Part shown: one piece after another, positions 15,950 through 58,653 of the stretch
Position numbering within the stretch: the first letter of the stretch is position 1
Layout of the letters: every line of letters begins with the position of its first letter
Origin: Patescibacteria group bacterium
GTDB lineage: Bacteria > Patescibacteriota > JABMPQ01
Direction: 5' to 3'
Assembly: GCA_018818965.1 (NCBI GenBank)
Contig: JAHJQX010000014.1
Coordinates: 6,178 to 70,177, forward strand
Length of the DNA stretch: 64,000 nucleotides
The notes under the pieces: model-generated
Told to the model about the DNA's origin: nothing
Databases searched by the model: none
Seen by the model: the letters and a program-made list of their open reading frames with translations, nothing else
Position numbers and translations under genes: made by a program

Positions 15950-15963
15950 GGGAGAGAGTCAAC
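15950..15963. repeat. Direct repeat GGGAGAGAGTCAAC (left copy) flanking GC-rich islet 1
   Basis: Exact 14-mer also present at 19574-19587. Confidence 0.7.
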
Positions 15964-16354
15964 TAGCAGCAATGCTAGGAGTATAAATTATACTATCAAG
16001 CTCTCTTGTGGTCGCGAGAGAGTTTTTTTGTCTTCTCTGGAAAGGGGCGTTAGCGCTCTTCTCCAGGTAAGATAAAGCCCTGAACATTATAACTAAGCGG
16101 GTTCTTCCCTCATTGCGCTTTTTGCGGAGAGTGCAGCGGGAGAAGAATCCCGAGGCGAGGAGTGCCTCGAAAAAAACTTCGTAATACTCCGGGGAAGCAC
16201 CGGGGCGCGCTGAGGCAGCGCGTAAAATTGCCTAGCAAAATCACGAGCCAGTAAAGGCCCAGCCCTGCACGATGCGGGGTGGTTGGGAGCGACACTGACT
16301 GGCTGAGAATCTAGAGCCCCACGTGAATACGGGGCAATCAAGAGGAGCGAGAGA

Positions 16355-16816
16355 ATGTTTTCCGCGCTGATCAACGAGTTGAACGGTATCTGGGGTGGTG
16401 GTCTCGAGGCAGTGCTGGGGTTCGTCGGGCTGCTGTTGGCGGCGCCGGCGCTGTGGTGGTGGCTGCTGCCGCGCTATACGGCGGTGTGCTGCCACGACGG
16501 GAACCGGTGGTTGTCGGACTGCCCGGGGACGTGGAGCAAGGCCCGGGGCGTTGCCGGCAACGACCTGGCCCTCTGGGTCAAGGCGTACGCCGCGCAGGTG
16601 ACGACTGGGAAGTTTCTCCAGCCGCACCAGGCCCGTATCCCCGAGAACCCCGTCCCACGGCGGCTGAAGGTGGTCCTGTTCGGCGAGCAGCGCGGCGTGT
16701 ACTATATCGTCGGGATCAAGATCCTCGACGAGAAAATACTCTCCGAGAAGTCCGACCGAAGCAACACCCCGGTCGTCAACTTTGAGGACGAGGACGAGTA
16801 CCTTCCGCTCCGCTAA
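16355..16816 (+). CDS. Hypothetical protein with N-terminal TM helix (GC-rich islet 1)
   Basis: GAGGAG SD 8 nt upstream; hydrophobic segment LGFVGLLLAAPALWWWLL; high-GC codon usage. Confidence 0.45.
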   Translation: MFSALINELNGIWGGGLEAVLGFVGLLLAAPALWWWLLPRYTAVCCHDGNRWLSDCPGTWSKARGVAGNDLALWVKAYAAQVTTGKFLQPHQARIPENPVPRRLKVVLFGEQRGVYYIVGIKILDEKILSEKSDRSNTPVVNFEDEDEYLPLR

Positions 16817-17261
16817 CGAACCGCCTGCTCCCCCCCAGAGACGTTCGCCAGGCTGACACCCTGGTCGCAGTCAACTGTCCCCGGCGCACGCAGCTGCGTT
16901 GGGTCTACCTCCCCGCTCACCTGTGAGGTGTGAGCGACTACGGGAGCCTACCAAATCCTCATTGTTCTTTTGACCCTTCACCCGGAAGCGCACTATCAGA
17001 GTACGCTTCCCCTTCCAGAGGATAGAAATAAGCTTCTATTCTCTGGAATAGTCATGAGTTACGATTCGTGACTACAAAAAATAGAAAAGTAATCCCTGGG
17101 CTGATCTAGGGATTATTGGTGTACCAACTTCACTCTCTGATTTGCTCTCTAGAAAGCGCAAACCAGCCGTGAACTTGGCACAAGCCAAGTCGAACATTTT
17201 AATCTGAGAATCGAAACCGACAAACAAAGCGCCTATTAAAAGACGCGAACAGGAGAAACTG

Positions 17262-19544
17262 GTGGCTAGCATTACGAGACAGGGTCCGCAGTACCACGGC
17301 CAGAGTGTGGAAGACCTCCGCACTTGGGCAGTCATCGAACGGCTGCCCTGGCTGGTGGAGGCCCTCGGCTTGACGGCCGGGGCGATCTGTGGATCCTTGG
17401 AGGAGGCGCTGCGGCGCCAGGTATACGGCTTGGGTAGCGCCGACGAGCTGCCCGCTCCCATTGACTGGGAGCGTAACGGTATCATCATCTCCCCGCCGGG
17501 GACGGGCAAGGGCATGGCCTGCTTCGTGGAGGCACTTCTGCACTACGAGCGGGTCTACGTGCTCGTGCCCTCGGTGATCCAGGCGCACAAGCTTGAGGAG
17601 AGCTTGGACGTCTTGTTTCATCGGGATCTGGGTGGCTGTGCAACGAGTCAGCGCAAGGCGCGGGGTCTGATCCGGGTCATCACGACCGGCATCTTCCACC
17701 AACTGGTGGCGGATGAGGACTCACAGCTGTGGGAGGACGGCACGGTTCTGATCGTGGACGAGGCGCAGCGGATTCTGGAGAACGATCCGGAGACGGAGCT
17801 GATGATCGGCACCTGCGCCTCGCAAGGGGTGCCGGTGATGATCGTCTCGGCGACGATTGCTCCGGGGACGTTGCCTGAAGTCTACGGTCACGGCGCGAGC
17901 GAGCCGGCTCAGGTCTACAGCCTGGTCAAGAACATGCACCCGGTGGAGATCGAGGTCACCACTGGCCGCGAGATCACCCAGGTGCTGTCCGAGACCGAGG
18001 AGCTGCTCGCTGACGGTAAGACGACGCTGGTCTTCTGCGCCTCGCGGCGCGAGGTGGCGAGCGTGGCTGATCTGCTGGCTCAACTGGGTGGAGCGACGGT
18101 GCGTGTTACTGGCGCTCATCAGGTGGAGGAGCAGATCGCCGAGATCGAGTCCGCTCAGGCGACCGGTCTGCCGGTGTTCGTGGTGGCCACGCCGGGCACC
18201 ATGGACAGCTCGGTGACGGTGCCGGGACTCTCCTGCGTCGTCATCCAGGACATGCGTTACAGTGTGGACTGGAATAAGTTTGGCGTGATCGAGCGTCGGC
18301 ACGAGACGCTGCCGGTCAACCACATTGTCCAGATGATCCGCCGGGTGGGTCGCATTGCCCGCACGGATGGTCAGCGGGACAAAGTGATCGTGGTTTCGAG
18401 CTGTCCCCGCCCGGAGCTGATGGTGGAAACGCCCCAGTTCCAGCCGATTTCCGGCTGCTCGCCGCACACTCAGATCGAGAACCTCCTGCTGCGCGCCGTG
18501 CAGTTTGACATCCCCTTCGCGGATGTCCACGACTACATGGTTAGCAACTTCGCAGAGGAGCGGATCGAGAAGACGGTGGCGGCGTTGCTGGAGCACGGCA
18601 TGATTGAGCGGGTGGACGACCCTTCCGATCCCGACGGCTTCGAGCTGACGGACAAGGGAGAGTTAGTCATCTCGCTGCCCTTCGAGTATCGCTGGTCGCG
18701 GTTGATCGTGGAGGCGCCGGAGGAGCTGCAGCTGTGGCTCACGCTGGCGGCCGCCTGCGGTCATGTCCGGGACCTGGAGATGCACGAGGAGCAGTCACTC
18801 GACGTGGCTGGTCACCAGCGCTCCGAAGTGCTGCGCAAGATCGCGCTCATGGTCGAGTACCTCGGCCTGGAGCACGACCGCGAGCAGCGCGACGAGGCCG
18901 ACGAGCGGGGACTGTCGTTCCGACGGATGGAGCAGGCAGAGACGCTGTTCGATCTGGCAATGGAGGCCTTGGAGCTGGACTGGGATGTAGACGAGCTGGC
19001 GGTGCCCGAGGGCGAGGAGATGGAGACGCTGCTCTTAGAGATCGTCACCGGCGGGCTGCGGACGGGTTTGTACAAGCTGTACTTCCCGCATCGTGGCGAC
19101 CGTGGTGGTTGGTCTGAGCCGCGGCCTACTCCTGACCTGGACGGCCAGTTTCGGCGTTTCTTCGTCGATGACAACGGCCTGGCTCTCTCGCGGTACGCCG
19201 AGGGCGGGGTTTGCGCCGTTGTCGCCTCGCCGACCTGGTTCACGTCCAAGAACGGCGGCCCCTGCGCCAACCTGGACGACGTGACCATCGTGCCGAGCGA
19301 TCTGCTGCCGCAGCTGGTAGCGGACTTGGCCAAGCGCGAAGGTTGGTTCCAGGTGACCTTCGAGGAGGGCGAGTTCCGGGGCCAGACCAGGCTCGAGGCC
19401 CGCGGCGCCGACGGGTGGACGATCTACCTGCCCAGCCGGATGGACAACGAGCCGGAGGTGGGTGTGGCCTACTGGTGCTCCCCCGATCGTCAGATCGGCC
19501 GGGGCATTCAGACGGTCTGGATCCACTTCCCGGTCAACGGCTAG
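17262..19544 (+). CDS. SF2 DExH-box helicase, NS3/DEAH-like, with degenerate Walker A (GTG start)
   Basis: Motifs read by eye: I PPGTGKG (no canonical GK[ST]), Ia VLVPSV, II DEAQ, III SAT, IV-like LVFCASRREVASVADLL, V VVATPGTMDSSVTVPG, VI QMIRRVGRIAR. AGGAG 6 nt before GTG. About 350-aa C-terminal extension of unknown fold. Confidence 0.7.
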   Translation: MASITRQGPQYHGQSVEDLRTWAVIERLPWLVEALGLTAGAICGSLEEALRRQVYGLGSADELPAPIDWERNGIIISPPGTGKGMACFVEALLHYERVYVLVPSVIQAHKLEESLDVLFHRDLGGCATSQRKARGLIRVITTGIFHQLVADEDSQLWEDGTVLIVDEAQRILENDPETELMIGTCASQGVPVMIVSATIAPGTLPEVYGHGASEPAQVYSLVKNMHPVEIEVTTGREITQVLSETEELLADGKTTLVFCASRREVASVADLLAQLGGATVRVTGAHQVEEQIAEIESAQATGLPVFVVATPGTMDSSVTVPGLSCVVIQDMRYSVDWNKFGVIERRHETLPVNHIVQMIRRVGRIARTDGQRDKVIVVSSCPRPELMVETPQFQPISGCSPHTQIENLLLRAVQFDIPFADVHDYMVSNFAEERIEKTVAALLEHGMIERVDDPSDPDGFELTDKGELVISLPFEYRWSRLIVEAPEELQLWLTLAAACGHVRDLEMHEEQSLDVAGHQRSEVLRKIALMVEYLGLEHDREQRDEADERGLSFRRMEQAETLFDLAMEALELDWDVDELAVPEGEEMETLLLEIVTGGLRTGLYKLYFPHRGDRGGWSEPRPTPDLDGQFRRFFVDDNGLALSRYAEGGVCAVVASPTWFTSKNGGPCANLDDVTIVPSDLLPQLVADLAKREGWFQVTFEEGEFRGQTRLEARGADGWTIYLPSRMDNEPEVGVAYWCSPDRQIGRGIQTVWIHFPVNG

Positions 19545-19572
19545 CTCTTTGTTTCTACTCTCGGGGAGAGAG

Positions 19573-19605
19573 TCAACGCTCTTTCCCCGTTTTTTCCCAG
19601 CTTGG
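19573..19605 (+). terminator. Intrinsic terminator after helicase (GGGGAGAGAG-tcaacg-CTCTTTCCCC + GTTTTTT); includes the right direct-repeat copy
   Basis: 10-bp stem with one G-U pair, followed by a T6 run. Confidence 0.6.
19574..19587. repeat. Direct repeat GGGAGAGAGTCAAC (right copy) flanking GC-rich islet 1
   Basis: Exact 14-mer match to 15950-15963. Confidence 0.7.
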
Positions 19606-19902
19606 CAATATTAATTGCTGAGCTGAGAAGAACTTTGTAAATAAAGAAAATGTGACGATACTACTTAAGGTGTTGTTGGGATTCTAAAGCTAGGATAGTG
19701 TTCTTGCTCCTGCTTCTAGCGGGAACAAACCTCTTTCCCAGAGGAACACTGTGCTAATTTTGGTAGGGAATTGAACCTCTAACTCAGTTTCCATCATCTC
19801 GACAGCATTTTGGGTGGTATTTTTTATTTCCCCTTGCCTATTTTCTCAAACCACGTTATCATACCCCCAGACAAAAAAACTTTTGAAAGGAGACAATTTA
19901 TT

Positions 19903-22424: not shown

Positions 22425-22520
22425 GTGATAGGTAATGGGTTTTAGGTGTTAGGATTTCTATAAGTATTTTCTAGATAGTCCCTACGCCTAGTATCTAATA
22501 CCTATAACCTAATTAAACAA

Positions 22521-24615: not shown

Positions 24616-24722
24616 TAGGTTTATGGTTGGTAGGACTGTTATAAATTATTTTTAAATAGTTTATACAACCTGCCCGCCAGCAAACAAGCCTACTCGCTAC
24701 TACTCATAACCTAATTCATCCC

Positions 24723-37471: not shown

Positions 37472-37481
37472 AGAGGATAGA

Positions 37482-46583: not shown

Positions 46584-46639
46584 ATCCTTGCTCCTAATTT
46601 TATGCTTGCTACACTGGAATCAAGATTAATAAAAATATT

Positions 46640-46993: not shown

Positions 46994-46998
46994 TTATT

Positions 46999-47622
46999 AT
47001 GGTTCTATTTCCCGCTCTAATATATCTCACCATTGTTCTGTCCTTACTGCATTTTGAAGTTTTCGATTTTTCCTTAACTGATAATGGTTTACCAGCTTGG
47101 GTGATCGTAGCCGGCATTCTTCTGATGTTACTTGGCAGCCTGATAGATGTTCCCTTGATCCTGCGTGGGCCGGGACGCAAGCAAGACCGGAGACATTGGC
47201 ATTCACTCTTTCTGGTGACCAACGGTAAGAAAGCTAGAAAAGGTCTTTATCTCAATTTAGGAGGAGCGATTGTCCCAATACTGCTAGCTATATATCTATT
47301 TTCTCACGCTCCACTAGTGCCGACGCTAATAGCTTTGGCAGTGGTTACTATTATCACCAGGTTTATGACTAGGATTTCTTCTTTAAAAGGGAATTGGTTG
47401 CATTTATCAGCGCTTGTCCCTTTACTAGCCGCTTTATGTACGTCTTTACTACTAACCCCTGCTAATCCAGCCATTGTATTCTATCTTGCTGGCACTTTAG
47501 GAACTTTAGTGGGTGCTGGCCTGCTCAATATTAACAAGATAAACGAGGCACCCCTGTTTATCGGTGGGCGAGGGATGTTTCACGGGATATTTTTAGTAAA
47601 TGTCGTTTTCTTACTCCTGTAA
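46999..47622 (+). CDS. Hypothetical polytopic membrane protein
   Basis: 5-6 TM helices, no motif recognised. Confidence 0.4.
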   Translation: MVLFPALIYLTIVLSLLHFEVFDFSLTDNGLPAWVIVAGILLMLLGSLIDVPLILRGPGRKQDRRHWHSLFLVTNGKKARKGLYLNLGGAIVPILLAIYLFSHAPLVPTLIALAVVTIITRFMTRISSLKGNWLHLSALVPLLAALCTSLLLTPANPAIVFYLAGTLGTLVGAGLLNINKINEAPLFIGGRGMFHGIFLVNVVFLLL

Positions 47623-47631
47623 TTAGCAGCA

Positions 47632-48810
47632 ATGGGTGGGAATATTATAATTCACTACGGCGAAATAGGTCTTAAGGGCAAGAATAGGCCTTTTTTTGAG
47701 CGTAAGTTGGTAGAGAATATCAAGCGATCTTTGTCAGATCAGAAATTCACTAAGGTTAAAAAAGGCTACGGACGAATTTTGGTGGAGTTAAATGATAGGT
47801 CTAGCCCAAAGCAGATAGTCCAGCGACTGCAGCAAGTTTTTGGTATCACTAATTTAGCGGTAGCCACCAAGGCAAAGAACGATATGGACGCGATAAAGTC
47901 AGTTGCCCAAGAAGTTTTACCCAAAAGGTTAAAAACATTTCGGGTAACAGCTCGACGATCGAATAAAAACTTTCCCCTAGATTCCCAGGAAGTCAACGAG
48001 GAGCTAGGTGGTTATATACTAGAAAAAAGGCCAGGAGCTAAAGTTAATCTCAGTCATCCCGAGACTAATATTTATGTGGAAATTGCTGGCGAAGGCGTGT
48101 TTGTGTACTCAGAGAAACTACCTGGTCTCGGTGGTTTACCGGTTGGTGTCAGTGGACGAGTAGTTTCGCTCTTGTCTTCCGGTTTTGACTCGCCAATCGC
48201 TAGCTATAGGTTGATGAAACGTGGGGCGAGAGTAGTCTTTGCTCATTTTCACTCCTATCCGCAAACTGATAAACGTTCGCTAGAGAATGTACAAAAAATT
48301 GTTGGCCTCCTTGATCAATACCAGAGTAAATCTAAGCTTTTCCTGGTTCCTTTCCTTGATATTCAAAAGGAAATTTATGCTAAAGCAGCTGCTCCGGATC
48401 GGGTTGTTCTTTATCGACGGATGATGATACGGATTAGCGAAATAATTGCCCGGCAAGAAAGAGCCGAGGCATTGGTGACCGGTGATAGCCTGGGGCAAGT
48501 GGCTTCACAAACACTTACTAATATGAGTACGATTGGTGAGGTAGCCACCATGCCGTTACTGCGGCCCTTGGTTGGGCTAGATAAAGAAGAAATTATGCAG
48601 AAAGCTCGTCAAATTGGCACCTACGATATCTCTGCTCAGCCTGATGAGGATTGCTGTTCACTTTTTGTACCGAAAAATCCTAATACTAAGACCAATATAG
48701 CCGATATCAAAAAACAAGAAGAAAAACTGGCAATTAACGACCTGGTTGAAAAAGCGGTTGAATCTGTTAAGATAGAAGTAGTTACCTCTTTAAATAACAA
48801 GAAAAGATGA
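47632..48810 (+). CDS. thiI: tRNA 4-thiouridine(8) synthase ThiI
   Basis: THUMP-like N-terminal domain and PP-loop SSGFDS (SGGxDS). Confidence 0.8.
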   Translation: MGGNIIIHYGEIGLKGKNRPFFERKLVENIKRSLSDQKFTKVKKGYGRILVELNDRSSPKQIVQRLQQVFGITNLAVATKAKNDMDAIKSVAQEVLPKRLKTFRVTARRSNKNFPLDSQEVNEELGGYILEKRPGAKVNLSHPETNIYVEIAGEGVFVYSEKLPGLGGLPVGVSGRVVSLLSSGFDSPIASYRLMKRGARVVFAHFHSYPQTDKRSLENVQKIVGLLDQYQSKSKLFLVPFLDIQKEIYAKAAAPDRVVLYRRMMIRISEIIARQERAEALVTGDSLGQVASQTLTNMSTIGEVATMPLLRPLVGLDKEEIMQKARQIGTYDISAQPDEDCCSLFVPKNPNTKTNIADIKKQEEKLAINDLVEKAVESVKIEVVTSLNNKKR

Positions 48811-50546
48811 AGTTTTACTTATTGCCAATCATAATTATAGCCGGCATTTTTTTGTGTCTGGCTCCGAGTGCACAAGCCGAAACCAATGCTCCGGGCACGG
48901 CTGGCTATGAACTCTATACGGAAAAGATTCAAAATTTTGATGTACATATCGCCGTTAATGAAGATTCTTCTATTAATGTTACGGAAAAAATTGTCTATGA
49001 TTTTGCTGAACTACAGCGGCATGGTATTTATCGCGATATTCCTTATAAATATAAAGCGCGTGGGGGACGGTTTTCGGTTAAATTAAGTGATTTTAAGGTG
49101 GTAGACGAAAAAGATGATGGTTATGCCTACACTGTTTCCAAGCAAGACGATAAAAAACGAATAAAAATTGGCGATGCCGATCGCTATGTGTCAGGGGTGC
49201 ATGCCTATCTTATTTCCTACAAAGTTCAACGAGCGCTTAATTATTTTGGCGAACATGATGAGCTCTATTGGAACGCAACTGGCTTGGAATGGCAAGTGCC
49301 GATTAATTGGTCAGGAGCAACGATAAAGTTACCCCAGGAGATTACCCCAGATAAATTACAGACAGCTTGTTATACTGGAGTTTATGGTAGTACAACCAGT
49401 GCGTGTCAGATAGAAGTAAAAGAGAATGGCGAAGTTACTTTTATTACTGATGGACAATTACGTGCCTATGAGGGTCTGACGATCGTAGTTGGTTGGCCTA
49501 AGGGGGTTGTTAGCCAGCCGGCGCTACTGCAGCGAACGATCTGGTTTCTACAAGATAATTATTATTTCTTTTTGCCGTTTATTGTCTTTGCCTTTTCTTT
49601 TGCTTACTGGTGGATACGCGGACGTGATCCCAAGATGCAGGGAGCAGTCGTGGCCGAATATGAAGCGCCAGATGGCTTATCGCCAGCGGAAATCGGTACA
49701 ATTGTTGATGGCAAAGTGGACAATAAAGATATTACAGCCGAGCTAATTGACTTAGCTATCAAAGGATATCTGAAGATCAAACAAACTGGCCTGGGTAAAA
49801 AAGATTATCGGTTGATTAAATTAAAAGAGCCTGACAGTTTGTCGAGTGACTATGATAAGAAATTAATGGAAGGCTTGTTTGGTAGTGGAAATGAAATAGA
49901 GATGAAGACGCTGGTAAACAGTTTTTACAAGGATATGAAGATAATTAGCAATCAGATTTATACGGCTGTTACTAGCCAGGGATATTATGCCAAAAATCCT
50001 GTCCGAGCTAAGTTTGGTTGTTTATTTATTGTGGGTATCATTGCCCTTTTTGGTTCGTTCTGGTTGGGTGGCATCATGACTAATTTCTTTTTTGGGGCTT
50101 CAGTCTTTATCTCTGGTCTGATTATGATGATTTTTTCAATGTTTATGCCCAAGCGTACTTCTAAGGGGACAGAAACGCTACGTCGGATTCTGGGATTTAA
50201 GGAATTTTTGAATGTAACTGAAAAAGAGCGACTGAAATTCCACAATCCGCCCAAGATGGTGCCCAAGATGTTTGAAAAATTATTACCCTACGCGATGGCC
50301 TTGGGCGTAGAAGGAAAATGGGCGAAGAACTTCGAGAATATTTATAAACAACAACCGGATTGGTACGAAGGTTATCAGGGAGGAAGTTTCAATTCAATTT
50401 ATTTGACCAGCGCGCTGTCGACTTTTTCCACTAACTCAGCCAGCGTCATGGTTTCTCAGCCTTCGAGTAGTGCGTCTGGTGGTTCCGGATTTTCCGGTGG
50501 CGGCTCGGGCGGAGGAGGCGGTGGCGGAGGAGGCGGGAGCTGGTAG
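48807..50546 (+). CDS. DUF2207-family membrane protein with Gly-rich C-terminal tail
   Basis: Signal peptide, large extracytoplasmic domain, TM pair, terminal GGSGFSGGGSGGGGGGGGGGSW tail typical of DUF2207. Confidence 0.55.
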   Translation: MKFYLLPIIIIAGIFLCLAPSAQAETNAPGTAGYELYTEKIQNFDVHIAVNEDSSINVTEKIVYDFAELQRHGIYRDIPYKYKARGGRFSVKLSDFKVVDEKDDGYAYTVSKQDDKKRIKIGDADRYVSGVHAYLISYKVQRALNYFGEHDELYWNATGLEWQVPINWSGATIKLPQEITPDKLQTACYTGVYGSTTSACQIEVKENGEVTFITDGQLRAYEGLTIVVGWPKGVVSQPALLQRTIWFLQDNYYFFLPFIVFAFSFAYWWIRGRDPKMQGAVVAEYEAPDGLSPAEIGTIVDGKVDNKDITAELIDLAIKGYLKIKQTGLGKKDYRLIKLKEPDSLSSDYDKKLMEGLFGSGNEIEMKTLVNSFYKDMKIISNQIYTAVTSQGYYAKNPVRAKFGCLFIVGIIALFGSFWLGGIMTNFFFGASVFISGLIMMIFSMFMPKRTSKGTETLRRILGFKEFLNVTEKERLKFHNPPKMVPKMFEKLLPYAMALGVEGKWAKNFENIYKQQPDWYEGYQGGSFNSIYLTSALSTFSTNSASVMVSQPSSSASGGSGFSGGGSGGGGGGGGGGSW

Positions 50547-50697
50547 AGATTGCTCTGATTAAAAACAGCAGAACGAAACTCTACTATTTTTAATAAACAA
50601 TTATAACTTTACCTTATGCCTGGGCCTTCACTCCCCTTATCATCGAATAATCTATGTTCTATATCATAACTGACAAGAAGTAATAATATTATTTCGA

Positions 50698-52557
50698 ATG
50701 TCTATGTTGAGTACCAGCCGATATTTATTGCGTAGATTGCTTGTGGTAGCAATATTTTTCTCAGGCTGTTTTTTGATAAGCAACCAAGTCCAGGCCGTCT
50801 CCCTCATCACTGGCGCTGGTTCGGGTGGTGGTCCCCACGTGCGTAGTTTTACTACTAGCGGGACAGTGGAGACCAACCCTAACAAACTAATGGCCTACGG
50901 CACTGATTATCGTGGAGGCGTTAGAGTAGCTACTGGTGACATCGATAATGATAATATCGATGAGATAATCACCGGTACTGGTGAAAATGGTGGTCCTCAC
51001 CTGCGAGTATTCGAAAAAGACGGTACCCAGCGAGGGATAGACTTCTTCCCCTTTGATTCTAGCTTTAGAGGCGGTATGGATGTCGCCTCCGGTGACTTTG
51101 ACGGCGATGGCAAAGAAGACATCGCTGTCTCTCAGTTCTCCAACGGTCAAGCCTGGGTTAAGGTTTATCGCTACAATACAACCAAAGACGTCCTCTTTGA
51201 ACAGAACGTCTTCGGTACCCCTGAATGTGGCGCTACCGTAGCGATGGGTCAACTAGACTCTGATGCTAACAAGGAGCTGATTGTCGGAGCAGGCAATGGC
51301 TGTTCGTCTCAGATAGTAGCCTATGACTATCAAGCCAATGACACTGCTGGTACTAAAAAATCTATCTCCTTCTATGCTTATGACACCGCTATCAAAGCAG
51401 GCGTTGATGTTTCCGCTGGTGATGTTGATGGTGACGGCAAGGATGAGATAGCCGCCTCCCGCCTCAAAGATTCTCTTCCCTATATCTACGTTTTTCGTTA
51501 CAACACTGATCATACCCAACTAGCCAGCTTCAAAGCTTACGGTGACTTCCAAATAGGCGCCAATGTCGAGATGGCCGATATTGACTCTGATGGACTAGCG
51601 GAAGTTGTCACTGGGGCTGGACCAGGAGGAGGACCGCAACTGCGAGCCTTTGAATACGATGGTACGGCCATTAGCGCTCTCAACAAAGCTTTTGCTTACG
51701 ATTCAGGCTTTAGAGGTGGAGTGGATGTGGCTGCTTACAATCCTAACGGCAGTCGACGAGATTTGAGCGACCTAGCTACCTATGCTAATGCCTACAAGGA
51801 ATATACCAATGAAGACTTAGAAAATCTTAAACGTTTTGATATCGTGGCCATCGATCCTTACGATGTACCTGATGCTAGTTTCGTCACAGAACTGAAAGCA
51901 GCCGGCGTGATTGTTTTGGCATATATTGATATTGGTGAAGCGGAGATTTATCGCAGTTATTGGGATAGTCTCGATCAGTCATTAGTTTTGCAGGCTAATC
52001 CCGATTGGGAAGGCTGTTATTACGCTGATGTTAACAATCCCGCCTGGCATAATGTTTTGCTCAATACCGAAATTCCCTATTTATTTGAGTGGGGTGACTA
52101 CGATGGTCTAATGATGGATATGTTAGACACAGTTGATGTTCTGCCAGAACTCAAGCCGGGGATGATCGAGCTCGTACGGAAAATTCATGAGAGATATCCG
52201 GATTTGTTGCTGGTTCCTAACCGAGGCTTTTCTGTTTTACCGGAAATTTCTTCGCACATTGACGCGGTCAAATATGAAGGAATGTGCGCAACTTATGATT
52301 TTGACACCCAATCTTACTATTACGAAGATGATGATAATGAGATGGCGATTTTAACATCAGTTTTAGAGGATCACAATGTGCCAGTGTTGGCCTTAGATCA
52401 TGTAGATACTTCTACGGCAGCAGGCGAGGTAATGGCACGGGCATGCTACGATAAAGCTCGACAGAGGGAGCAAGAAACTGGTTTTAACTTTATCTGGTAT
52501 GCTAATGCCGTTACCCAAGATTTGCCAGTATGGGATTGGTTACCGTTTAGTGAATAG
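50698..52557 (+). CDS. Secreted FG-GAP/VCBS-repeat protein fused to a putative GH114-like (endo-alpha-1,4-polygalactosaminidase/PelA-like) TIM-barrel domain
   Basis: Signal peptide; five D-x-D-x-D-G repeats (TGDIDNDNIDEI, SGDFDGDGKEDI, AGDVDGDGKDEI, MADIDSDGLAEV); C-terminal FDIVAIDPYDV...AYIDIGEAE...YADVNNPAW resembles GH114. Confidence 0.5.
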   Translation: MSMLSTSRYLLRRLLVVAIFFSGCFLISNQVQAVSLITGAGSGGGPHVRSFTTSGTVETNPNKLMAYGTDYRGGVRVATGDIDNDNIDEIITGTGENGGPHLRVFEKDGTQRGIDFFPFDSSFRGGMDVASGDFDGDGKEDIAVSQFSNGQAWVKVYRYNTTKDVLFEQNVFGTPECGATVAMGQLDSDANKELIVGAGNGCSSQIVAYDYQANDTAGTKKSISFYAYDTAIKAGVDVSAGDVDGDGKDEIAASRLKDSLPYIYVFRYNTDHTQLASFKAYGDFQIGANVEMADIDSDGLAEVVTGAGPGGGPQLRAFEYDGTAISALNKAFAYDSGFRGGVDVAAYNPNGSRRDLSDLATYANAYKEYTNEDLENLKRFDIVAIDPYDVPDASFVTELKAAGVIVLAYIDIGEAEIYRSYWDSLDQSLVLQANPDWEGCYYADVNNPAWHNVLLNTEIPYLFEWGDYDGLMMDMLDTVDVLPELKPGMIELVRKIHERYPDLLLVPNRGFSVLPEISSHIDAVKYEGMCATYDFDTQSYYYEDDDNEMAILTSVLEDHNVPVLALDHVDTSTAAGEVMARACYDKARQREQETGFNFIWYANAVTQDLPVWDWLPFSE

Positions 52558-52596
52558 ATATGGTGTTTTTTATAAGTAGGGCAGTTTTCTCGACGA

Positions 52597-53706
52597 TTAA
52601 TCTCGCAGATTCTGCTCAAAAAATGGCACCACTTTGCCCAAAACATGCTCGCCAAATTCAAATCCGTCGCCATGGCCAGCCCCCGGTATTTTCGTAAATT
52701 CCGCCTTCACTCCGGCTGTATTAAGAGCTTGGTATAAAATATCACTTTGGCTAATTGGTACTATGCTATCCTGGTCGCCGTGCATTATTAAGAAAGGAGG
52801 ATCATTGTTGTCGACATATTTAATAGGATTCGCTTTTTGCATTAAATCAGCAGCATCTGTTTCACCGACTAGCGCTTCCACAGAGTTCGCATAGTTTTCA
52901 TACTGGGAGTAGTCTACCTGGGAAAAATCGGTTGGCCCGTACCAGTCGCAAACAGCTTGCACCTGGCTGGAATAATTAAGATTATCACCTTGTTCAAACT
53001 CCGCCACTCCGCCGGAAGTGCCCAAGAGAGCGGCCAAATGTCCTCCCGCCGAATCTCCCCAAGCCCCAAAATTATTTTTATCCAAGCCATACTTATCGGC
53101 ATAAACCCTCAACCAACGCACAGCTGCCTTAACATCTTGAATCTGAGCGGGAAATGTTGCTTCATCGCTCAATCGGTAATTAATAGAGGCCACCGCGAAT
53201 CCATAAGAGGCTATTTCTTTACCCTGCCCATTTGCCTTATCACCCGCTTGCCAGCCACCACCGTGAATCCAGATAACTAGAGGTAGTTTCTGAGAAATAT
53301 CAACTGGTCGGTATAGATCCAAATATATTTTTTTACCATTCACGGTAGTGTAATACAGATCTAAATTCTTTCTTACCTCACCCTCCAGAATTCCTTGATC
53401 AAGATTGGAAGTATCCACAGCGGTAGTATCTTGCGTGGAAGTGTTGTTGGTATTTGAAGAGTTTGTATCGGAATAACTCGTAGTGTTAGTGGAGGTATCA
53501 GTGGCAATATTAGAATCGCTGGTGTTTAATATAGCAGACTGATCAGCCTGCTTGTTGTTTTGCTCCGCCGGTTGGTCGGTAGTTGTCGCCTGCGTAGATT
53601 TTTGATCTTGATTATTGTTTTGCCAAAAGAAATAGACACCAGCCCCAGCTCCCAGCAGTGCTACTGGGATAATAATTAATATAGTGGCGATATATTTTTT
53701 AGTCAT
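52597..53706 (-). CDS. Alpha/beta-hydrolase-fold esterase/lipase (fold-3, Aes/BD-FAE-like) with N-terminal TM anchor and Ser/Thr/Asn-rich linker
   Basis: HGGGW oxyanion motif and GDSAGG nucleophile elbow; catalytic D/H downstream. Confidence 0.75.
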   Translation of the reverse strand: MTKKYIATILIIIPVALLGAGAGVYFFWQNNNQDQKSTQATTTDQPAEQNNKQADQSAILNTSDSNIATDTSTNTTSYSDTNSSNTNNTSTQDTTAVDTSNLDQGILEGEVRKNLDLYYTTVNGKKIYLDLYRPVDISQKLPLVIWIHGGGWQAGDKANGQGKEIASYGFAVASINYRLSDEATFPAQIQDVKAAVRWLRVYADKYGLDKNNFGAWGDSAGGHLAALLGTSGGVAEFEQGDNLNYSSQVQAVCDWYGPTDFSQVDYSQYENYANSVEALVGETDAADLMQKANPIKYVDNNDPPFLIMHGDQDSIVPISQSDILYQALNTAGVKAEFTKIPGAGHGDGFEFGEHVLGKVVPFFEQNLRD

Positions 53707-53708
53707 TT

Positions 53709-54395
53709 CTAGACCTTTAATTTGAAAGGATTAAATTTTGTTTTGTGGTCGTAAAAATCCTCTTCTTCTTTGTGTTTAAGTAGAGCTATAATTTTATAAG
53801 TGAGTGGTGTAAACAATATTTCCATTCCCACCTTGAAGATGTAGTTGGAAATGATAATGGTCAATAGTAAGCTACTGGGCAACACTCCCCAGAAAGCGAT
53901 CAGGACAAAAATGACGGTATCAAGACTTTGACCAACGAGAGTAGAACTGATAGTTCGTACCCAGAGCCGCTTACCCTGCATTTTTACCTTTAGCTTAGCC
54001 AAAATGACGGCGTTAGAAAATTCACCTGCCAAATAGGCAATCAGGCTAGCAATGACTATTCTGACGCTAAGGCCGAGGATATTGTTGTAGGCTTCTTGGA
54101 AAGGCCAATCAGCGGCAGCTGGGAGTTTACCGACAATAATGAAAACGAGTGACATAACTAGGGCGGATATAAAACCCAGCCAGATTACTTTCCGCGAGCG
54201 ACGGAAACCATAGACCTCAGTTAAAATATCACCAAAAATGTAGGCAAGCGGAAAGAGCAAAGTACCAGCGTCAAAAGTGAAGAGCTTGAGATCAACAATT
54301 TTAGTGGAAGCGATATTGGAAATTAACAAAACCGCGACAAAAAAAGCGGTGATGGTATCGAGGTGGTGGTAAGATTTTTGGGTGTTTTCTCTCAT
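53709..54395 (-). CDS. Queuosine-precursor transporter, YhhQ/DUF165 (VUT) family
   Basis: 6-TM protein with conserved N-terminal pattern ...ISNIASTKIV...FPLAYIFGDILTEVYGF. Confidence 0.7.
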   Translation of the reverse strand: MRENTQKSYHHLDTITAFFVAVLLISNIASTKIVDLKLFTFDAGTLLFPLAYIFGDILTEVYGFRRSRKVIWLGFISALVMSLVFIIVGKLPAAADWPFQEAYNNILGLSVRIVIASLIAYLAGEFSNAVILAKLKVKMQGKRLWVRTISSTLVGQSLDTVIFVLIAFWGVLPSSLLLTIIISNYIFKVGMEILFTPLTYKIIALLKHKEEEDFYDHKTKFNPFKLKV

Positions 54396-54559
54396 AGCTA
54401 ATGTTGTTACGGGATAATGATATTTTATCTAACTTTTTAAAACAAGGGGATACAAGAAAAAATTATAAATCCGAGTGGGGCAGTGAGGACAGTTGAGGTT
54501 GACTTTGTGTCTATTTTTGGTACCTTAGGGAATATGTTTTCGACAACCTGCACTTTAAC

Positions 54560-54570
54560 CATTTAGCCAA
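54560..54570. repeat. Direct repeat CATTTAGCCAA (left copy) flanking GC-rich islet 5
   Basis: Exact 11-mer also at 55589-55599. Confidence 0.55.
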
Positions 54571-54655
54571 CCCGAGGGGGTTGAAAGGAGGAAAATTTAC
54601 CGAAGAGTGTTGTAAAGGGACAGATCGACAATGAGGAAGAGACAAGGAGACGAGG

Positions 54656-55453
54656 ATGAAGAGGGACGAGCGATTCAAGGCCCGGACAGATGCCGGAGTC
54701 ATCACGTTCTACGAAGACTTGAGGATGCTGGGAGCACTGCTCATCTATGGCGGACTCGACCGCGGGTTCGTGCTCAAGGTGGTTATGTTCCTGCTCACCG
54801 AGTTTCGCATCACCTTCGGCGAGCTGGCAGAGGTGTCAGAGGAGTTCCGGATCGGCGAGGACGAGGAACCGGAGTCTGCCAGGGAGACCGCCGAGGTCAG
54901 GACGGTGCACATGGGTGACACCGCGCCCTACCCGCCCGCCGGCGTCGAAGCTGCTGCTGAGGGTGATGCGGACGGTGGGCCGATCGCGAAGGTTCCCACC
55001 CAGCCGCTTCCCGACGAGCTGGACGGCGCCGGTGAGCAGGACACGCCCCCGGCCGGCATGAAACAGTGCGTGCACTGCCACGAGTACAAGATCCCGGCCG
55101 ACAAGTCGACCGTCGTCTGCTCGGGCTGCGAGGAGAAGCTGAAGGCGGAGTTCGACGGTGACGACGACGAGGACGAGGACAACGAGCCTGAAGTCGGAGA
55201 CGCCCCCCCGGAGGCCATCGTGACGTCCCCGCCCCCCGCCGAGGCCGCGACCGAGCTGGGCGCCGAGGATGATGACGACGACGAGGAGGGCTCTCCCGTC
55301 GCTACCCCGCCCGCCGAGCTCGAGCCCGCCGTGACCGACGAGGACGCCGGCCTGGAGCCCCCCGAGGAGATCGTGGTCGCGGACGCCGACGAGCCCGAGG
55401 GCACCTACGACCCGGTTGCCCAGAAGGGTCCCGGTGGCGGAACCGGCTGCTAG
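54656..55453 (+). CDS. Highly acidic protein with N-terminal ~70-aa domain and central CxxC...CxxC zinc-ribbon (GC-rich islet 5)
   Basis: AGGAG SD 6 nt upstream; CVHC...CSGC; long D/E/P/A low-complexity tracts; own terminator at 55515-55549. Confidence 0.5.
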   Translation: MKRDERFKARTDAGVITFYEDLRMLGALLIYGGLDRGFVLKVVMFLLTEFRITFGELAEVSEEFRIGEDEEPESARETAEVRTVHMGDTAPYPPAGVEAAAEGDADGGPIAKVPTQPLPDELDGAGEQDTPPAGMKQCVHCHEYKIPADKSTVVCSGCEEKLKAEFDGDDDEDEDNEPEVGDAPPEAIVTSPPPAEAATELGAEDDDDDEEGSPVATPPAELEPAVTDEDAGLEPPEEIVVADADEPEGTYDPVAQKGPGGGTGC

Positions 55454-55514
55454 CAGTCGCAACCTACCCCCCGAGCCATTTCTGGCTCACCGAACATCCC
55501 CAGGAGTGAACCAT

Positions 55515-55549
55515 CCCTGAATCCCACCGATTCTCAGGGATTTTTTTTT
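55515..55549 (+). terminator. Intrinsic terminator (CCCTGA-13nt-TCAGGG + T9)
   Basis: 6-bp stem followed by nine T residues, about 60 nt after the stop of 54656..55453. Confidence 0.65.
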
Positions 55550-55588
55550 GCTGCGCTTTCTTTCTCCATTACTAGCGAGCAGATGAAA

Positions 55589-55599
55589 CATTTAGCCAA
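55589..55599. repeat. Direct repeat CATTTAGCCAA (right copy) flanking GC-rich islet 5
   Basis: Exact 11-mer match to 54560-54570. Confidence 0.55.
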
Positions 55600-55692
55600 T
55601 AAAGAAATCCAGTTGCCACTAATAATTGGATCTTGAATGATGAACCAGAAACTGCTATTTTTAAGGTATTCACTAGGCTATAGGAGATAACG

Positions 55693-55911
55693 ATGACTGG
55701 TCCGAACGGACCTGGGCCTCTACCCTCCAACTCTGGTAGGGAGCCGTCTGAGGGCAGAGAGACGATTGTGGAGTACACTCCTCTGACCCCAACCGGTCTC
55801 CCCCCCAGATGTGAAGGGGTGGACTGCGAGGCGTTCAGCATTCCCTGCCGTACCTCCCCTCCTCGAGAACCGACTTCTCCTCCCACGACCAAAAAAATCG
55901 ACCCAAAGTAG
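55693..55911 (+). CDS. Pro-rich small protein, 72 aa (GC-rich, just outside right repeat of islet 5)
   Basis: TAGGAGA SD 5 nt before ATG; competing antisense ORF 55572..55961 lacks an SD; coding status uncertain. Confidence 0.3.
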   Translation: MTGPNGPGPLPSNSGREPSEGRETIVEYTPLTPTGLPPRCEGVDCEAFSIPCRTSPPREPTSPPTTKKIDPK

Positions 55912-55989
55912 GTCGAAAATGAGAATCCCTGCCCCTTTTTGCCCTTCGCCATGGCCAGCAACTACTGCTCGGCCACTTTTTTACCATCT

Positions 55990-57261
55990 TTACCAGCGAT
56001 AATTTCTAAGCCCCCAATTAAGCAGTGATTCGACTTCAAATTTAGTGTCGGCATAAGAGGGATTACCCATTGTTACCGCGATTACCTCGTTGCCGTAGCG
56101 ATCTTTGGCTTTGGTCATTAAATTATAGTGGATTCCACCCCAGGAAGGTGGTAGATAACCAGTTTTCCCGCCGGTAACGGTGAGTTGGCTATTAACCAAA
56201 CCATTAGTATTACGAAAACTGAGAAATTTACTGCTGTTAGTAGTCCAGAAAGAGTAACTTTTACTAGTGGAGGCTTGTAGCACCTCCATTTTGTGCAGAG
56301 CGTATTGACTGAGTTTGGCATAATCAGTTGCGGAAGCACGATTGCGGTGATCAAGGCCAGTCGGTTCAACAAACGAAGCGTTACTCATTCCTAATTCGAC
56401 TGCTTTTTGGTTCATGCGGTTGACGAAATCAGTGTCGGAAAGACCAGTGGAATGAGCGAGAGCTTTGGTGGCGTTGTTTTTCGAGCCAACTAGGGAGGAA
56501 TAAAATAAGTCACGTACTTTTGTTCTATCTCCTGGTACGACGTTAAGGTGGCAACCGTCAGCGGAGTCAGCTGCACTGATTGTTACTTCGCGATTAAAAT
56601 CAGGATTGGTTTCCAGAAAGATCACGGCGGTCATTAATTTAGTCAGGCTAGCTAGAGGGAGTTGCTCGTTGGAATTTTTCTCGAACAGCACTTGCCCGCT
56701 TTCATCGTCAATCACAATCGCCGCGCGTGCGTCGGTGGCGATGCCCCAGCTATCAGTAGCTTTGGTTGGACCCGGAGCTTGCTTTTCCTCTAAAACCGCT
56801 AGATAAGAATGGGGAAAGTGAATAGCGGCACGCGCGTACTTATTAGTCCCGTCTAAACTAGTCGGGATTGGTTTCCAACCACCAGTGGTGTGATCATAAA
56901 AATTAATCTGCTTGTGATTGAGCGAGCTCGATTCGTATTTGAGAGCAACCCAGATCGGTTTTTCCAGCACCCGCGGCTGCGACATCTCGATGTTGTACGA
57001 ATAGATCTCACTGATTATGTTTTTATCAGTTGGCAGAGTAGGGTAGTCAGTCAGATCTTCAAGCTTGATAGTCGAAGCTTCGGAAAAAACATTAGGGCCG
57101 ATACCGATCCGGAAGTTTTGGTCAGTTAGTTCGATCGTGTAACCTCTCACAATGGTAGCAGCATCGAGATGGGTGCGTTCAACTTGGGCAAAAACTACGC
57201 CAGGTAGAAAAAGAGATATCCCGGCGGCGGTTAGCAATATTTTCTTCAGTGTTTTCATCAT
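55990..57261 (-). CDS. D-alanyl-D-alanine carboxypeptidase (peptidase S11, PBP5/6-like) with extra N-terminal domain
   Basis: Signal peptide; SxxK (ASLTK), SxN (SKN) and KTG (GGKTGY) motifs. Confidence 0.75.
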   Translation of the reverse strand: MMKTLKKILLTAAGISLFLPGVVFAQVERTHLDAATIVRGYTIELTDQNFRIGIGPNVFSEASTIKLEDLTDYPTLPTDKNIISEIYSYNIEMSQPRVLEKPIWVALKYESSSLNHKQINFYDHTTGGWKPIPTSLDGTNKYARAAIHFPHSYLAVLEEKQAPGPTKATDSWGIATDARAAIVIDDESGQVLFEKNSNEQLPLASLTKLMTAVIFLETNPDFNREVTISAADSADGCHLNVVPGDRTKVRDLFYSSLVGSKNNATKALAHSTGLSDTDFVNRMNQKAVELGMSNASFVEPTGLDHRNRASATDYAKLSQYALHKMEVLQASTSKSYSFWTTNSSKFLSFRNTNGLVNSQLTVTGGKTGYLPPSWGGIHYNLMTKAKDRYGNEVIAVTMGNPSYADTKFEVESLLNWGLRNYRW

Positions 57262-57956
57262 TTAAGATTATAGGTGGCTAATATTTTGGTTTTATCCGGA
57301 TGGCAAACAGCGTTGGTAGTGATTAGGTTAATTTTTCTAACTTCTAATTCTCCCCAGTCAGCCGTTTTTAATTCAGCAATGTTGGTCTTAAAATTGTCGT
57401 TAGGTTCGGTAGTGTAGCGACAGACAGTTAAATTACCAAAGACAATATCAGGTGAAATATACTGTTTATTATCCGGGACGCCTGCCTCGGCCAACCTTTT
57501 CCTGAGTTCTAGCGCCAAATTTCCCAATATTTTATCGGAATAGGCGCGGATAGCTATACTAGTAGGCATCTCCAAGAGACCTCTTAGCTCAAAAGTGAAA
57601 GGACGGAATTCAACTACTACCTGCTGAAAAACCTTTTTAACTTTTACAATGTCTCCGGCGGTAAATCGGGGCGGAAAGTTAGCTGGGACTGTCCTAATAC
57701 TCTGGATGGTGATATGCAATGAAGCCGGCGGGTAATAATATTGTCGGCTATCAGCTTGTTTTAGTGGAGCGATAATTTTGTCAGTAACAATTTTTTGCAA
57801 TTCTGGCGGGAGGAAAACTACGCTGGTGAGACAAAGCCGTTGGTCAGTAGCATAATTGTCCATCGTTTCGACTAGAGTAACGGTAGTTTTACCAGCTCGC
57901 ACTTCTTTTTCCAGTTGCTCAAAGACTTGATGCTGTTGTTTTTGGTAGTTGTTCAT
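57258..57956 (-). CDS. Hypothetical protein
   Basis: No confident family; single HITI (H-x-T) motif only, so 2H-phosphoesterase assignment not supported. Confidence 0.35.
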   Translation of the reverse strand: MNNYQKQQHQVFEQLEKEVRAGKTTVTLVETMDNYATDQRLCLTSVVFLPPELQKIVTDKIIAPLKQADSRQYYYPPASLHITIQSIRTVPANFPPRFTAGDIVKVKKVFQQVVVEFRPFTFELRGLLEMPTSIAIRAYSDKILGNLALELRKRLAEAGVPDNKQYISPDIVFGNLTVCRYTTEPNDNFKTNIAELKTADWGELEVRKINLITTNAVCHPDKTKILATYNLK

Positions 57957-57994
57957 AATAAAGCCATCTTAGCATAAAATCAGGCTTCTAATAA

Positions 57995-58025
57995 TAAAAA
58001 AAGATCGTCTGGGATGCAACGATCT
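57995..58025 (-). terminator. Intrinsic terminator for the EamA-like gene (AGATCGT-10nt-ACGATCT, T7 on minus strand)
   Basis: Perfect 7-bp stem; A7 on plus strand precedes it (T7 following on minus). Confidence 0.6.
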
Positions 58026-58033
58026 TGAAGTTA

Positions 58034-58447
58034 CTACTTGAGGAGAAAAACGGCGATGGCCATGAGGATAAATCCAATGACCTTTTTGTCCGTGAAGAGC
58101 TCTCCAAGAAGGAGCCAGGAAAAAACGGCAGTGAGGGCGAAGGTTGCGCCGAATATCACGGGAGTAATCCGGGATATGTCCATTTTTCCGCCCACCAGGA
58201 CGCCGTAAACGATGATACCCATCCCGTTGATGATTCCCGCTCCCAATCCGATCAGCAATGATCTTATGGGTGGAAGACTGGTCATCCCCCCCGTTGTCAC
58301 TCCCCATAAAACAGTTGTGGGCAGAGTGCCGGTGGCCAGCATGATTGATATCCAGGCTGGCGGTAATTTCGAATACCGCGAGATGATTGGGTGGAATGTG
58401 TAGAAAAGAGCTCCCAGCAAACAATAGCAAAGTCCAGCTGTGTCCAT
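58034..58447 (-). CDS. 4-TM EamA/DMT-like small transporter (GC-rich islet 6); start likely ATG at 58447, not the TTG at 58465
   Basis: Four TM helices, Gly-rich; high-GC codon usage; own terminator. Confidence 0.45.
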   Translation of the reverse strand: MDTAGLCYCLLGALFYTFHPIISRYSKLPPAWISIMLATGTLPTTVLWGVTTGGMTSLPPIRSLLIGLGAGIINGMGIIVYGVLVGGKMDISRITPVIFGATFALTAVFSWLLLGELFTDKKVIGFILMAIAVFLLK

Positions 58448-58653
58448 TGTTTTCCCTTTCGCCAAGTGTTGGTTCCCGAAGTGGAAATCTAACCAGCCTA
58501 ACTCTTTTTGGTAAGTAAGTCCAGCAAAAATATTTACAGCTAGACAACTCCATTGATTTCAAGGGGATGGTTTTCTATAATATTAAAGTAATATACAAAA
58601 ATGTAGCTAATTAATTTTCAAGTTAAATTATTTACATATTAACGATAAAATTT

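Follow-up and report, generated by a model that had tools for sequence, protein, structure and literature searches.

GC-rich gene islets bearing Shine-Dalgarno sites in a Parcubacteria-group chromosome: probable repeated horizontal acquisition and suggestively slow loss of donor composition

In this study, we describe a 64-kb stretch of DNA (the window; positions 6,178 to 70,177 of contig JAHJQX010000014.1, Patescibacteria assembly GCA_018818965.1) in which gene-sized islets rich in guanine plus cytosine (GC) interrupt a backbone of about 42% GC. The reading that we prefer, with a probability of roughly 0.7, is that GC-rich foreign DNA was repeatedly acquired by horizontal transfer into intergenic spacers of this Parcubacteria-group chromosome. 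Horizontally acquired accessory genes are a documented and already known kind of event in the candidate phyla radiation (CPR). What is notable here is that the islets are gene-sized and bear Shine-Dalgarno (SD) sites, that they recur in several CPR genomes, and that at least one of them seems to be losing its donor composition unusually slowly. In the following, W stands for the genome of the window and L-numbers (such as L010, L011 and L090) for the contigs and genomes compared with it.

High-GC segments were called with a two-state hidden Markov model (HMM) on GC, together with a 400-bp GC profile. About 11% of the window falls into the high-GC state, and the backbone segments of the model have 40-44% GC (mean of backbone 500-bp windows 41.9%, standard deviation 3.3, maximum 50.8). 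The segments called within the islets were:

16124-16948: islet 1, first block, 63.5% GC
17275-19589: islet 1, second block, 64.6% GC
31697-33103: islet 2, 59.8% GC
41274-42578: islet 4, 62.9% GC
54646-55529: islet 5, 67.3% GC
55699-55890: islet 5b, 63% GC

The model also flags a 137-bp patch of 64% GC (50407-50543) at the 3' end of a DUF2207 gene (48807-50546). A first-pass annotation had described six segments of about 60-65% GC. Within the limits that it drew, islets 1 to 6 have 61.5, 57.3, 53.8, 61.8, 60.7 and 49.6% GC, so that the description suits the four strong islets (1, 2, 4 and 5; 57-62% GC, with GC at third codon positions, GC3, of 0.74-0.88 in their genes) and is too generous for the two weak ones, islet 3 (37300-37890) and islet 6 (57995-58470), which have 54% and 50% GC and GC3 of 0.60-0.67. 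The raw GC of islet 6 lies inside the backbone range; islets 3 and 6 are nonetheless outliers at third codon positions, because their GC3 exceeds the backbone maximum of 0.48 (range 0.32-0.48 in all 49 backbone genes). The elevation of GC, on which the earlier observation depended, is confirmed by the HMM, the 400-bp profile and GC3.

The islet genes are atypical in nucleotide as well as codon composition. Their tetranucleotide signatures correlate with that of the backbone at r 0.03-0.46, compared with 0.74 for chunks of the backbone itself, and their proteins are rich in the amino acids GARP and poor in FYMINK (0.30/0.19 vs 0.22/0.30 in the backbone). The non-coding portions of the islets are likewise GC-rich (0.57-0.68), which points to an effect beyond codon choice. 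The suggestion that all islets share one donor composition did not hold: four-fold degenerate sites are enriched in G in islet 1 and in C in islet 5, with no such skew in islets 2 and 4.

The earlier remark that the islet genes, unlike those of the backbone, carry AGGAG-type SDs was borne out. A GGAG, GAGG or AGGA motif 4-16 nt upstream of the start is found at seven of the eight islet genes and at 3 of the 49 backbone genes (Fisher p=3.4e-6). The islet genes are:

16355-16816, plus strand: islet 1a, 153-aa protein, SD GAGGAG, N-terminal transmembrane helix by eye
17262-19544, plus strand: islet 1b, 760-aa HrpA/HrpB-like DEAH-type SF2 helicase, SD AGGAG, GC3 0.84
31682-33130, minus strand: islet 2, 482-aa DUF1646/Na_H_antiport_3 putative cation transporter, SD AGGAG, GenBank MBU1177859.1
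37310-37471, plus strand: islet 3a (weak), 53-aa CxxC...CxxC zinc-ribbon protein, SD GGAGG
37482-37880, plus strand: islet 3b (weak), 132-aa protein, hydrophobic N-terminal segment by eye, terminator at about 37884-37912
41378-42622, minus strand: islet 4, thiolase (Thiolase_N and Thiolase_C_1), SD AGGAGG, GenBank MBU1177868.1
54656-55453, plus strand: islet 5a, 265-aa highly acidic CxxC...CxxC protein, SD AAGGAG, terminator at about 55507-55540 read from the sequence
58034-58465, minus strand: islet 6 (weak), 143-aa half-size EamA/DMT transporter, terminator 58001-58026 on the minus strand

Each islet had also been credited with an intrinsic terminator of its own. A terminator scan recovers those of islets 1 and 6, a hairpin followed by a T-run is readable by eye at islets 3, 4 and 5, and the signal is less clear at islet 2. 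The placement of the islets in intergenic gaps that leave the flanking genes intact is backed by sister-genome alignments for islets 1, 3 and 4, and follows from the layout of open reading frames (ORFs) alone for islets 2, 5 and 6.

The possibility that assembly or binning joined reads of a GC-rich organism to a CPR contig, raised by the first-pass annotation, is practically negligible and is refuted for islets 1, 4, 5 and 6. Three assemblies, each from a different sample (Logan SRR6514730, ENA ERZ27247117 and ENA ERZ928008, found by exact look-up of the helicase and ProA proteins), contain islet 1 with its flanks at 99.995-100% identity to the window, junctions included. A further ENA contig (L111) is 100% identical to positions 44656-64000 and spans islets 5 and 6; islet 4 stands at the same junction in diverged sisters (72-86% DNA identity); and promoters of backbone type are fused to the islets. 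GenBank lists the thiolase and the DUF1646 protein under the accessions given above, on a 95.8-kb contig labelled 'Patescibacteria group bacterium', and both proteins have been deposited by several sources. The observation that would speak for a chimera is a break at about 42100, inside islet 4, in the assembly ERZ27247117, where contigs k141_276936 and k141_47631 both stop within the thiolase; the other assemblies and the sisters span this point, and a drop of coverage in high-GC sequence or strain variation could account for the break. The assemblies show the islets to be, to all appearances, physically part of the chromosome.

Sister genomes supply empty sites for two of the islets and an old, shared insertion for a third. 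The features at the sites of islets 1 and 4 are:

15701-19826, plus strand: variable segment holding islet 1, between the proA stop (15700) and the rpsA promoter
15822-15850, plus strand: low-GC promoter driving islet 1, TTGACA-17-TAAGAT with TG
15858-16035, plus strand: structured leader of about 170 nt, fold z=-3.2, with a terminator-like hairpin (15998-16025) at its end
16949-17261, no strand: low-GC spacer splitting islet 1, 313 bp, 43% GC
19562-19589, plus strand: intrinsic terminator closing islet 1, holding the right copy of the 14-bp repeat GGGAGAGAGTCAAC, whose left copy is at 15950
42671-42698, minus strand: low-GC thiolase promoter, TTGACC-16-TAGAAT, conserved in W, L090 and L091

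L010 lacks 15701-19826, and its proA stop lies directly against the rpsA promoter. In L011 the same gap holds a different insert of 6.8 kb (a 792-aa acetyltransferase-like gene, a divergent TrmB-like regulator and three GC-rich ORFs), and the two gaps share only the promoter and leader, from window 15803-15867 onward (15803-15867 aligns with L011 6888-6953, and promoter plus leader, 15822-16035, with L011 6888-7130). For islet 3, L091 has about 90 bp in place of window 37239-37982, with no target-site duplication at this empty site. Both islets are thus patchily present at syntenic sites. Islet 4, on the other hand, is found at the same site in L090 and L091 (Lon, a 195-aa gene, thiolase, T2SSE, GDH, DHH), and its upstream junction is homologous in the three genomes, comprising the neighbour's terminator, the low-GC promoter and the SD. 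The thiolase identities (W-L090 0.74, W-L091 0.70, L090-L091 0.64) are congruent with the backbone tree. Because site, junction and identities agree in this way, the alignments show islet 4 to be one ancestral insertion, vertically inherited and older than the split from the two sister species. The thiolase gene is also under purifying selection, since identity is 0.79 at codon positions 1 and 2 and 0.57 at position 3. The islets were gained at different times, as the alignments show, islet 4 before the sister split and islets 1 and 3 within the lineage. The idea of a recent multi-locus transfer therefore stands for the transfer and for the several loci; the transfers are not uniformly recent, islet 4 being old and the four-fold sites of the sisters near saturation, and they do not point to a single donor. 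Best matches had been expected to reveal whether one donor clade was involved. The closest non-CPR relatives of the thiolase (about 55% identical) carry the labels Deltaproteobacteria, Binatia, Myxococcales and Polyangiaceae, all of them GC-rich lineages, while the DUF1646 and helicase families are centred on CPR; these different affinities show that, in all likelihood, there was more than one source. The GARP/FYMINK signature, which changes slowly, argues for a long history in GC-rich genomes.

The age of islet 4 makes it possible to ask how fast its composition decays. Between W and L091 the backbone four-fold sites are near saturation (identity 0.37-0.46; strong/weak base class difference 0.429 vs a maximum of 0.496). 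The thiolase, which has diverged to a comparable degree, has a four-fold identity of 0.54, a class difference of 0.302 vs a maximum of 0.318, and a GC at four-fold sites (GC4) of 0.80 in both genomes. With a general time-reversible (GTR) process estimated from 850 backbone four-fold sites and bootstrapped, a thiolase that entered at the split with GC4 of 1.0 would now be predicted at 0.65 (bootstrap 0.59-0.70), compared with the observed 0.80 (P=7e-5; 149 sites); under a two-state model the ancestral GC4 would have had to exceed 1.2, which is impossible. This strong signal comes from one gene, and estimates near saturation are noisy. The comparison of W with L090 is borderline, fitting if GC4 was at least 0.95 at the split. 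An independent pair, L096 and L097, has three islets in common (coding for an MFS/POT transporter, a NUDIX-like and a FabA-like protein), with GC4 of 0.79. This pair is likewise borderline, since a fit requires a GC4 of at least 0.95-1.0 at the time of the split (P=0.07-0.39); G-to-C divergence in these islets (0.20) is not below that of the backbone (0.13). Three-taxon parsimony nevertheless gives 27 GC-to-AT against 11 AT-to-GC changes in the thiolase (75 against 89 in Lon), so that amelioration of the thiolase is under way, at about half the backbone-derived rate in a rough comparison of the parsimony counts. Retarded amelioration of islet composition is therefore suggestive. A mundane cause may be that backbone four-fold sites are under codon selection which accessory genes do not feel. 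The amelioration model of Lawrence and Ochman (J Mol Evol 1997) fits in that atypical GC, chiefly at third positions, marks foreign genes and in that the thiolase drifts from GC to AT; it differs in that the thiolase decays more slowly than the four-fold process of the recipient predicts (significantly for W-L091, borderline in two comparisons).

Under the preferred reading of repeated acquisition, DNA uptake followed by illegitimate or short-homology recombination would be the route of entry. Insertions would be kept and expressed only if they were intergenic, lay behind or beside a usable promoter and brought a strong SD, and larger inserts, like the helicase islands of about 10 kb in other CPR, would be pared down to useful genes. 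The retained cargo (transporters, a thiolase and an RNA-helicase module) would supplement a reduced genome, and its donor-like composition would decay, more slowly than the backbone substitution pattern predicts. Several points weigh against this reading. No close donor was found among 5.8 billion proteins, the best matches outside the strain and its sisters being 55-62% identical; two of the three searched families (DUF1646 and helicase) are CPR-centred and yet GC-rich in the window; presence or absence in sisters covers islets 1, 3 and 4 of the six; the thiolase GC4 of 0.80 exceeds what amelioration at the backbone rate would leave, so that simple passive amelioration fits incompletely; and the mechanism of entry is one that we infer throughout. 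The near restriction of the DUF1646 and helicase families to CPR would also be expected if native CPR genes had turned GC-rich in place without any transfer. This is, however, a very improbable account of the islets, given the empty sites in sisters for islets 1 and 3, the GC-rich non-CPR bacteria among the outside relatives of the thiolase, the GC-type amino-acid composition, the presence of SDs unlike native genes, and the AT-ward change of the thiolase. A dedicated system that inserts single genes between genes, whether integron-, transposon- or provirus-like or some other element, would explain the repeated intergenic placement and the fact that the proA-rpsA gap of W and L011 holds cargo that differs although the promoter and leader before it are conserved. 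It could also draw on direct repeats at two islets: the 14-bp exact repeat GGGAGAGAGTCAAC flanks islet 1 (15950-15963 and 19564-19577) and is longer than in all 500 of 500 random segment pairs, and an 11-bp repeat CATTTAGCCAA flanks islet 5 (54560-54570 and 55589-55599; p about 0.02, which fails multiple testing). We nonetheless consider such a system unlikely, and the novel delivery or insertion mechanism proposed in the first-pass annotation found no support: neither an integrase nor a transposase nor any other recombinase turned up in the 64-kb window, no k-mer of at least 11 bases or end motif is common to the islets (only one 10-mer occurs in three blocks), flank repeats at islets 2, 3, 4 and 6 are at null level, the left 14-bp copy lies inside the leader conserved in L011 and not at a junction, the empty site of islet 3 bears no target-site duplication, and no viral, plasmid or defence-system relatives were found.

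A different account, doubtful but of more weight than the native-gene and single-gene insertion readings, is that the islets form a stable second compositional compartment, in which selection or some active process would maintain a high GC after acquisition. Candidates are gene conversion biased towards GC where accessory loci recombine often, and selection for mRNAs that are structured or led by an SD; the pressure towards AT might also be weaker on genes of low expression, or genes might still be exchanged with a GC-rich pool as yet unsampled. The excess GC4 of the thiolase in W and L091, the impossible ancestral value of the two-state model, the high starting GC4 needed for L096/L097 with their unreduced G-to-C divergence, the recurrence of the pattern in the CPR genomes L092, L096, L097, L006, L004, L005 and L011, and the GC-rich non-coding parts all agree with it. 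Against it, the net GC-to-AT flux of the thiolase indicates that the gene is not at equilibrium, and one comparison is strongly significant while the W-L090 and L096-L097 comparisons are borderline. The helicase in L008/L009 and the DUF1646 gene in L093/L094 stand at backbone GC, so that amelioration does happen; the GC-type amino acids and the differing G3 and C3 usage look like inherited donor signatures and not the product of one local process; and searches with the helicase, the thiolase and DUF1646 returned no close reservoir copy. Still more tentatively, some Parcubacteria-group genomes might be persistently bimodal, with a stable, gene-sized, GC-rich and SD-dependent accessory compartment held off the backbone equilibrium, whether by GC-biased conversion, by selection tied to SD-led translation or by exchange with a hidden GC-rich CPR pool.

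The islets also differ in detail from the known kinds of mobile DNA. They resemble integron cassettes in that single promoterless genes seem to arrive one at a time, and the islet 1 site in W and L011 recalls variable cargo behind a fixed promoter. They differ in lacking IntI, attC-like imperfect inverted repeats and a shared end motif, in being dispersed and not arrayed, and in that most have their own promoter region and terminator. As for insertion sequences and transposons, we found no transposase domain and no terminal inverted repeats among the inverted repeats reported; as for genomic islands and integrative elements, there is no recombinase, the only tRNA of the window is at 1-71, the islets measure 0.5-3.6 kb, and the one notable flank repeat, at islet 1, is off the junction. 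A prophage origin found no support, as the single match to a viral contig is weak and partial and the cargo is metabolic or transport-related, and no defence-system model was matched above threshold. The repeat GGGAGAGAGTCAAC was considered as a general border motif and rejected, as exact copies occur only at islet 1 and copies with up to 3 mismatches number 8 where 4.2 are expected; it was also rejected as a target-site duplication, because its left copy lies within the leader that aligns with L011 and so marks no simple junction. Recombination between the copies of the flank repeats would excise islets 1 and 5.

With respect to islet 1, the proA-rpsA gap is a variable hotspot in which the cargo differs behind a conserved low-GC promoter and structured leader. 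In L011 the promoter region adjoins the divergently transcribed TrmB-like gene. The leader, partly conserved in L011, matches no Rfam family and may be an attenuator, a riboswitch-like leader or a small RNA (sRNA) controlling the variable cargo. A TrmB-family regulator lies divergent from GC-rich ORFs in three CPR genomes (L005 6676-7449, L006 20141-20932 and L011 6005-6814), and an acetyltransferase-like gene stands directly beside it in L005 (732 aa) and L011 (792 aa), with a 912-aa homologue elsewhere in the locus in L006. This may be a conserved arrangement of regulator plus variable cargo, of which the window would retain only the promoter and leader.

The helicase of islet 1b matches Pfam DEAD and Helicase_C, and PDB profiles of HrpA and HrpB at E 3e-13; its family numbers 28 proteins among the 5.8 billion searched, with invariant GTGK and DE-Q columns. 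It is like the HrpA/HrpB DEAH-box RNA helicases (PDB 6zwx, 6heg) in its RecA1/RecA2 core and the region downstream, aligning with HrpA profile positions 130-566 without a Pfam HA2/OB match, as far as sequence comparison reaches. It differs in being very distant (E about 1e-13, with no NCBIfam or Pfam HA2/OB match), in a distinct C-terminal region of about 200 aa and in always having small proteins of no assigned function upstream. The gene of the 153-aa islet 1a protein (GC 65%, GC3 0.88) has no Pfam match; the protein shares about 43% identity with a small ORF that precedes the helicase in L108 and has a weaker match in L008/L009. In every context fetched, the helicase is accompanied by small ORFs of no assigned function, in small genomes of similar housekeeping repertoire (contigs without a taxon label). 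L004 and L006 hold it in islands of about 10 kb with elevated GC; its surroundings in L005 and L108 show a moderate elevation, and in L008/L009 it has the GC of the backbone. A module of small protein plus helicase is conserved, with a reduced version in the window, because the 153-aa ORF is homologous to the small ORF beside the helicase elsewhere. None of the other islet proteins of the window was found in the helicase islands of other genomes. A search of IMG/VR with the helicase gave one weak partial match (33% over 112 aa) and none in phage records, and PADLOC gave only sub-threshold matches to the helicase core. Among helicase neighbours elsewhere are a conserved protein of about 255 aa with weak Cas_VVA1548 similarity (L004 12501-13271, L006 12454-13242), ORFs with weak Csx3 and SAVED matches (L004 8372-9811 among the regions listed) and, in L108 at 10621-12745, a LigT and RtcB RNA-repair pair. 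The weak Cas_VVA1548, SAVED and Csx3 matches belong to neighbours in other genomes, none of them in the window. There is a hint that the helicase module may have an RNA-directed function.

The cargo of the remaining islets is varied. The DUF1646 transporter family of islet 2 comprises 70 proteins, the named members being mostly CPR (Peregrinibacteria, Peribacteraceae, Kerfeldbacteria). Its homologue in L092 (54% identical) lies in an islet of 60% GC within a 44-46% backbone, at a different site, and the homologues in the Peregrinibacteria L093/L094 are at backbone GC. The gene of the 132-aa islet 3b protein has 55% GC and GC3 of 0.62, and its product, which the first-pass annotation had called PH-like, matched nothing in Pfam. 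The GC-rich block of islet 4 includes a 3' untranslated region of 104 bp with 66% GC; the thiolase matches PF00108 and PF22691 above their cut-offs, placing it in the superfamily, and NCBIfam subfamily models below theirs. The acidic protein of islet 5a (gene GC 68%, GC3 0.85, 100% identical in L111) gave no match in Pfam, NCBIfam or PADLOC. The islet 6 protein reaches 28.4 bits with Pfam EamA (cut-off 28.2), and its gene has 51% GC and GC3 of 0.60. When metagenomes were scanned for sisters that would cover islets 5 and 6, only distant relatives were returned, at up to 41% identity, among them the pair L096 and L097 described above. One block is non-coding:

55699-55890, no strand: islet 5b, orphan non-coding GC-rich block (63%) between the islet 5 terminator and the neighbour's terminator

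Its folding is moderately stable on both strands (z -2.5 and -2.75). No ORF in it has coding periodicity, Rfam gave no match, and in translation it resembles none of the other islands; it may be an sRNA or what is left of a cassette. Gene remnants of pared-down islands were sought with tblastx in the GC-rich non-coding parts and none was found. Apart from low-complexity matches of the acidic protein, taken as noise, the comparison recovered only the homology of the 153-aa ORF to an ORF of L108.

Applied to other CPR genomes, this HMM marks sharply bounded GC-rich islets, mostly of one gene, in L092 (3), L096 (3), L097 (5 in 21 kb), L090, L091, L011, L005 and L006, and none in L008, L010, L015, L016, L055, L088, L093 and L098. 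The islet ORFs of these genomes have high GC3, and several have GGAG-type SDs. It has been reported that up to 13% of genome length in Patescibacteria is attributable to horizontal gene transfer (HGT), mostly from Patescibacteria to Patescibacteria (PMC12455944, mSystems 2025). Our case agrees with that study in its CPR recipients, in the occurrence of single genes and islands and in a cargo of transport and metabolic genes that adds to a reduced genome. It differs in that the study assumes old transfers to vanish by amelioration, whereas here a transfer shared at near-saturated synonymous sites keeps GC3 of about 0.8, and in that the islets are gene-sized, sharp-edged, SD-bearing and without mobility genes. 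A reduced genome with a minority of deviant, presumably transferred genes is also described, in the available text of the two reports, for Lawsonia intracellularis (PMC2671203) and the Lagria beetle symbiont (PMC7042692); sharing across diverged sisters with retained composition does not appear in that text. We found neither persistent gene-scale GC islets nor an SD dichotomy described in the literature on CPR. If repeated acquisition is the true explanation, the window would offer a well-dated case of an ultra-small CPR bacterium acquiring transporter and enzyme genes one at a time, no mobile element being recognisable, with defined empty sites and a proA-rpsA hotspot that swaps cargo behind a conserved promoter and leader. 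Composition-based detection of HGT and amelioration clocks assume relaxation at the rate of the recipient, and the thiolase still looks freshly foreign. The SD-bearing islets within an SD-less backbone would also make a natural test of how foreign GC-rich messages fare on a ribosome that seldom relies on SDs.

The backbone itself is made up of housekeeping genes (proBCA, gyrA, L32, rpsA, PFK, GAPDH, TilS, FtsH, Lon, T2SSE, GDH, ThiI, BacA, HSP20 and others). The closest ProA relatives (83-84%) are the Parcubacteria-group metagenome-assembled genomes L010 and L011, followed by other CPR. The proB-proC-proA genes (12440-15700) form a complete proline biosynthesis operon in this CPR backbone; beyond the two Parcubacteria sisters, ProA relatives are 59-66% identical and come mostly from Bacteroidota and Chlorobi, with a few other CPR, and the operon could be an older, fully ameliorated transfer. 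Several backbone starts are preceded, at 0-8 nt, by TAACCTAA (6 copies vs 2.6 expected; for example at 22505-22512, 24707-24714, 30010-30017 and 31541-31548), which is part of longer upstream motifs that recur (repeat families D1 and D4) and may serve short-leader mRNAs as a -10-like element or provide another signal for initiation.

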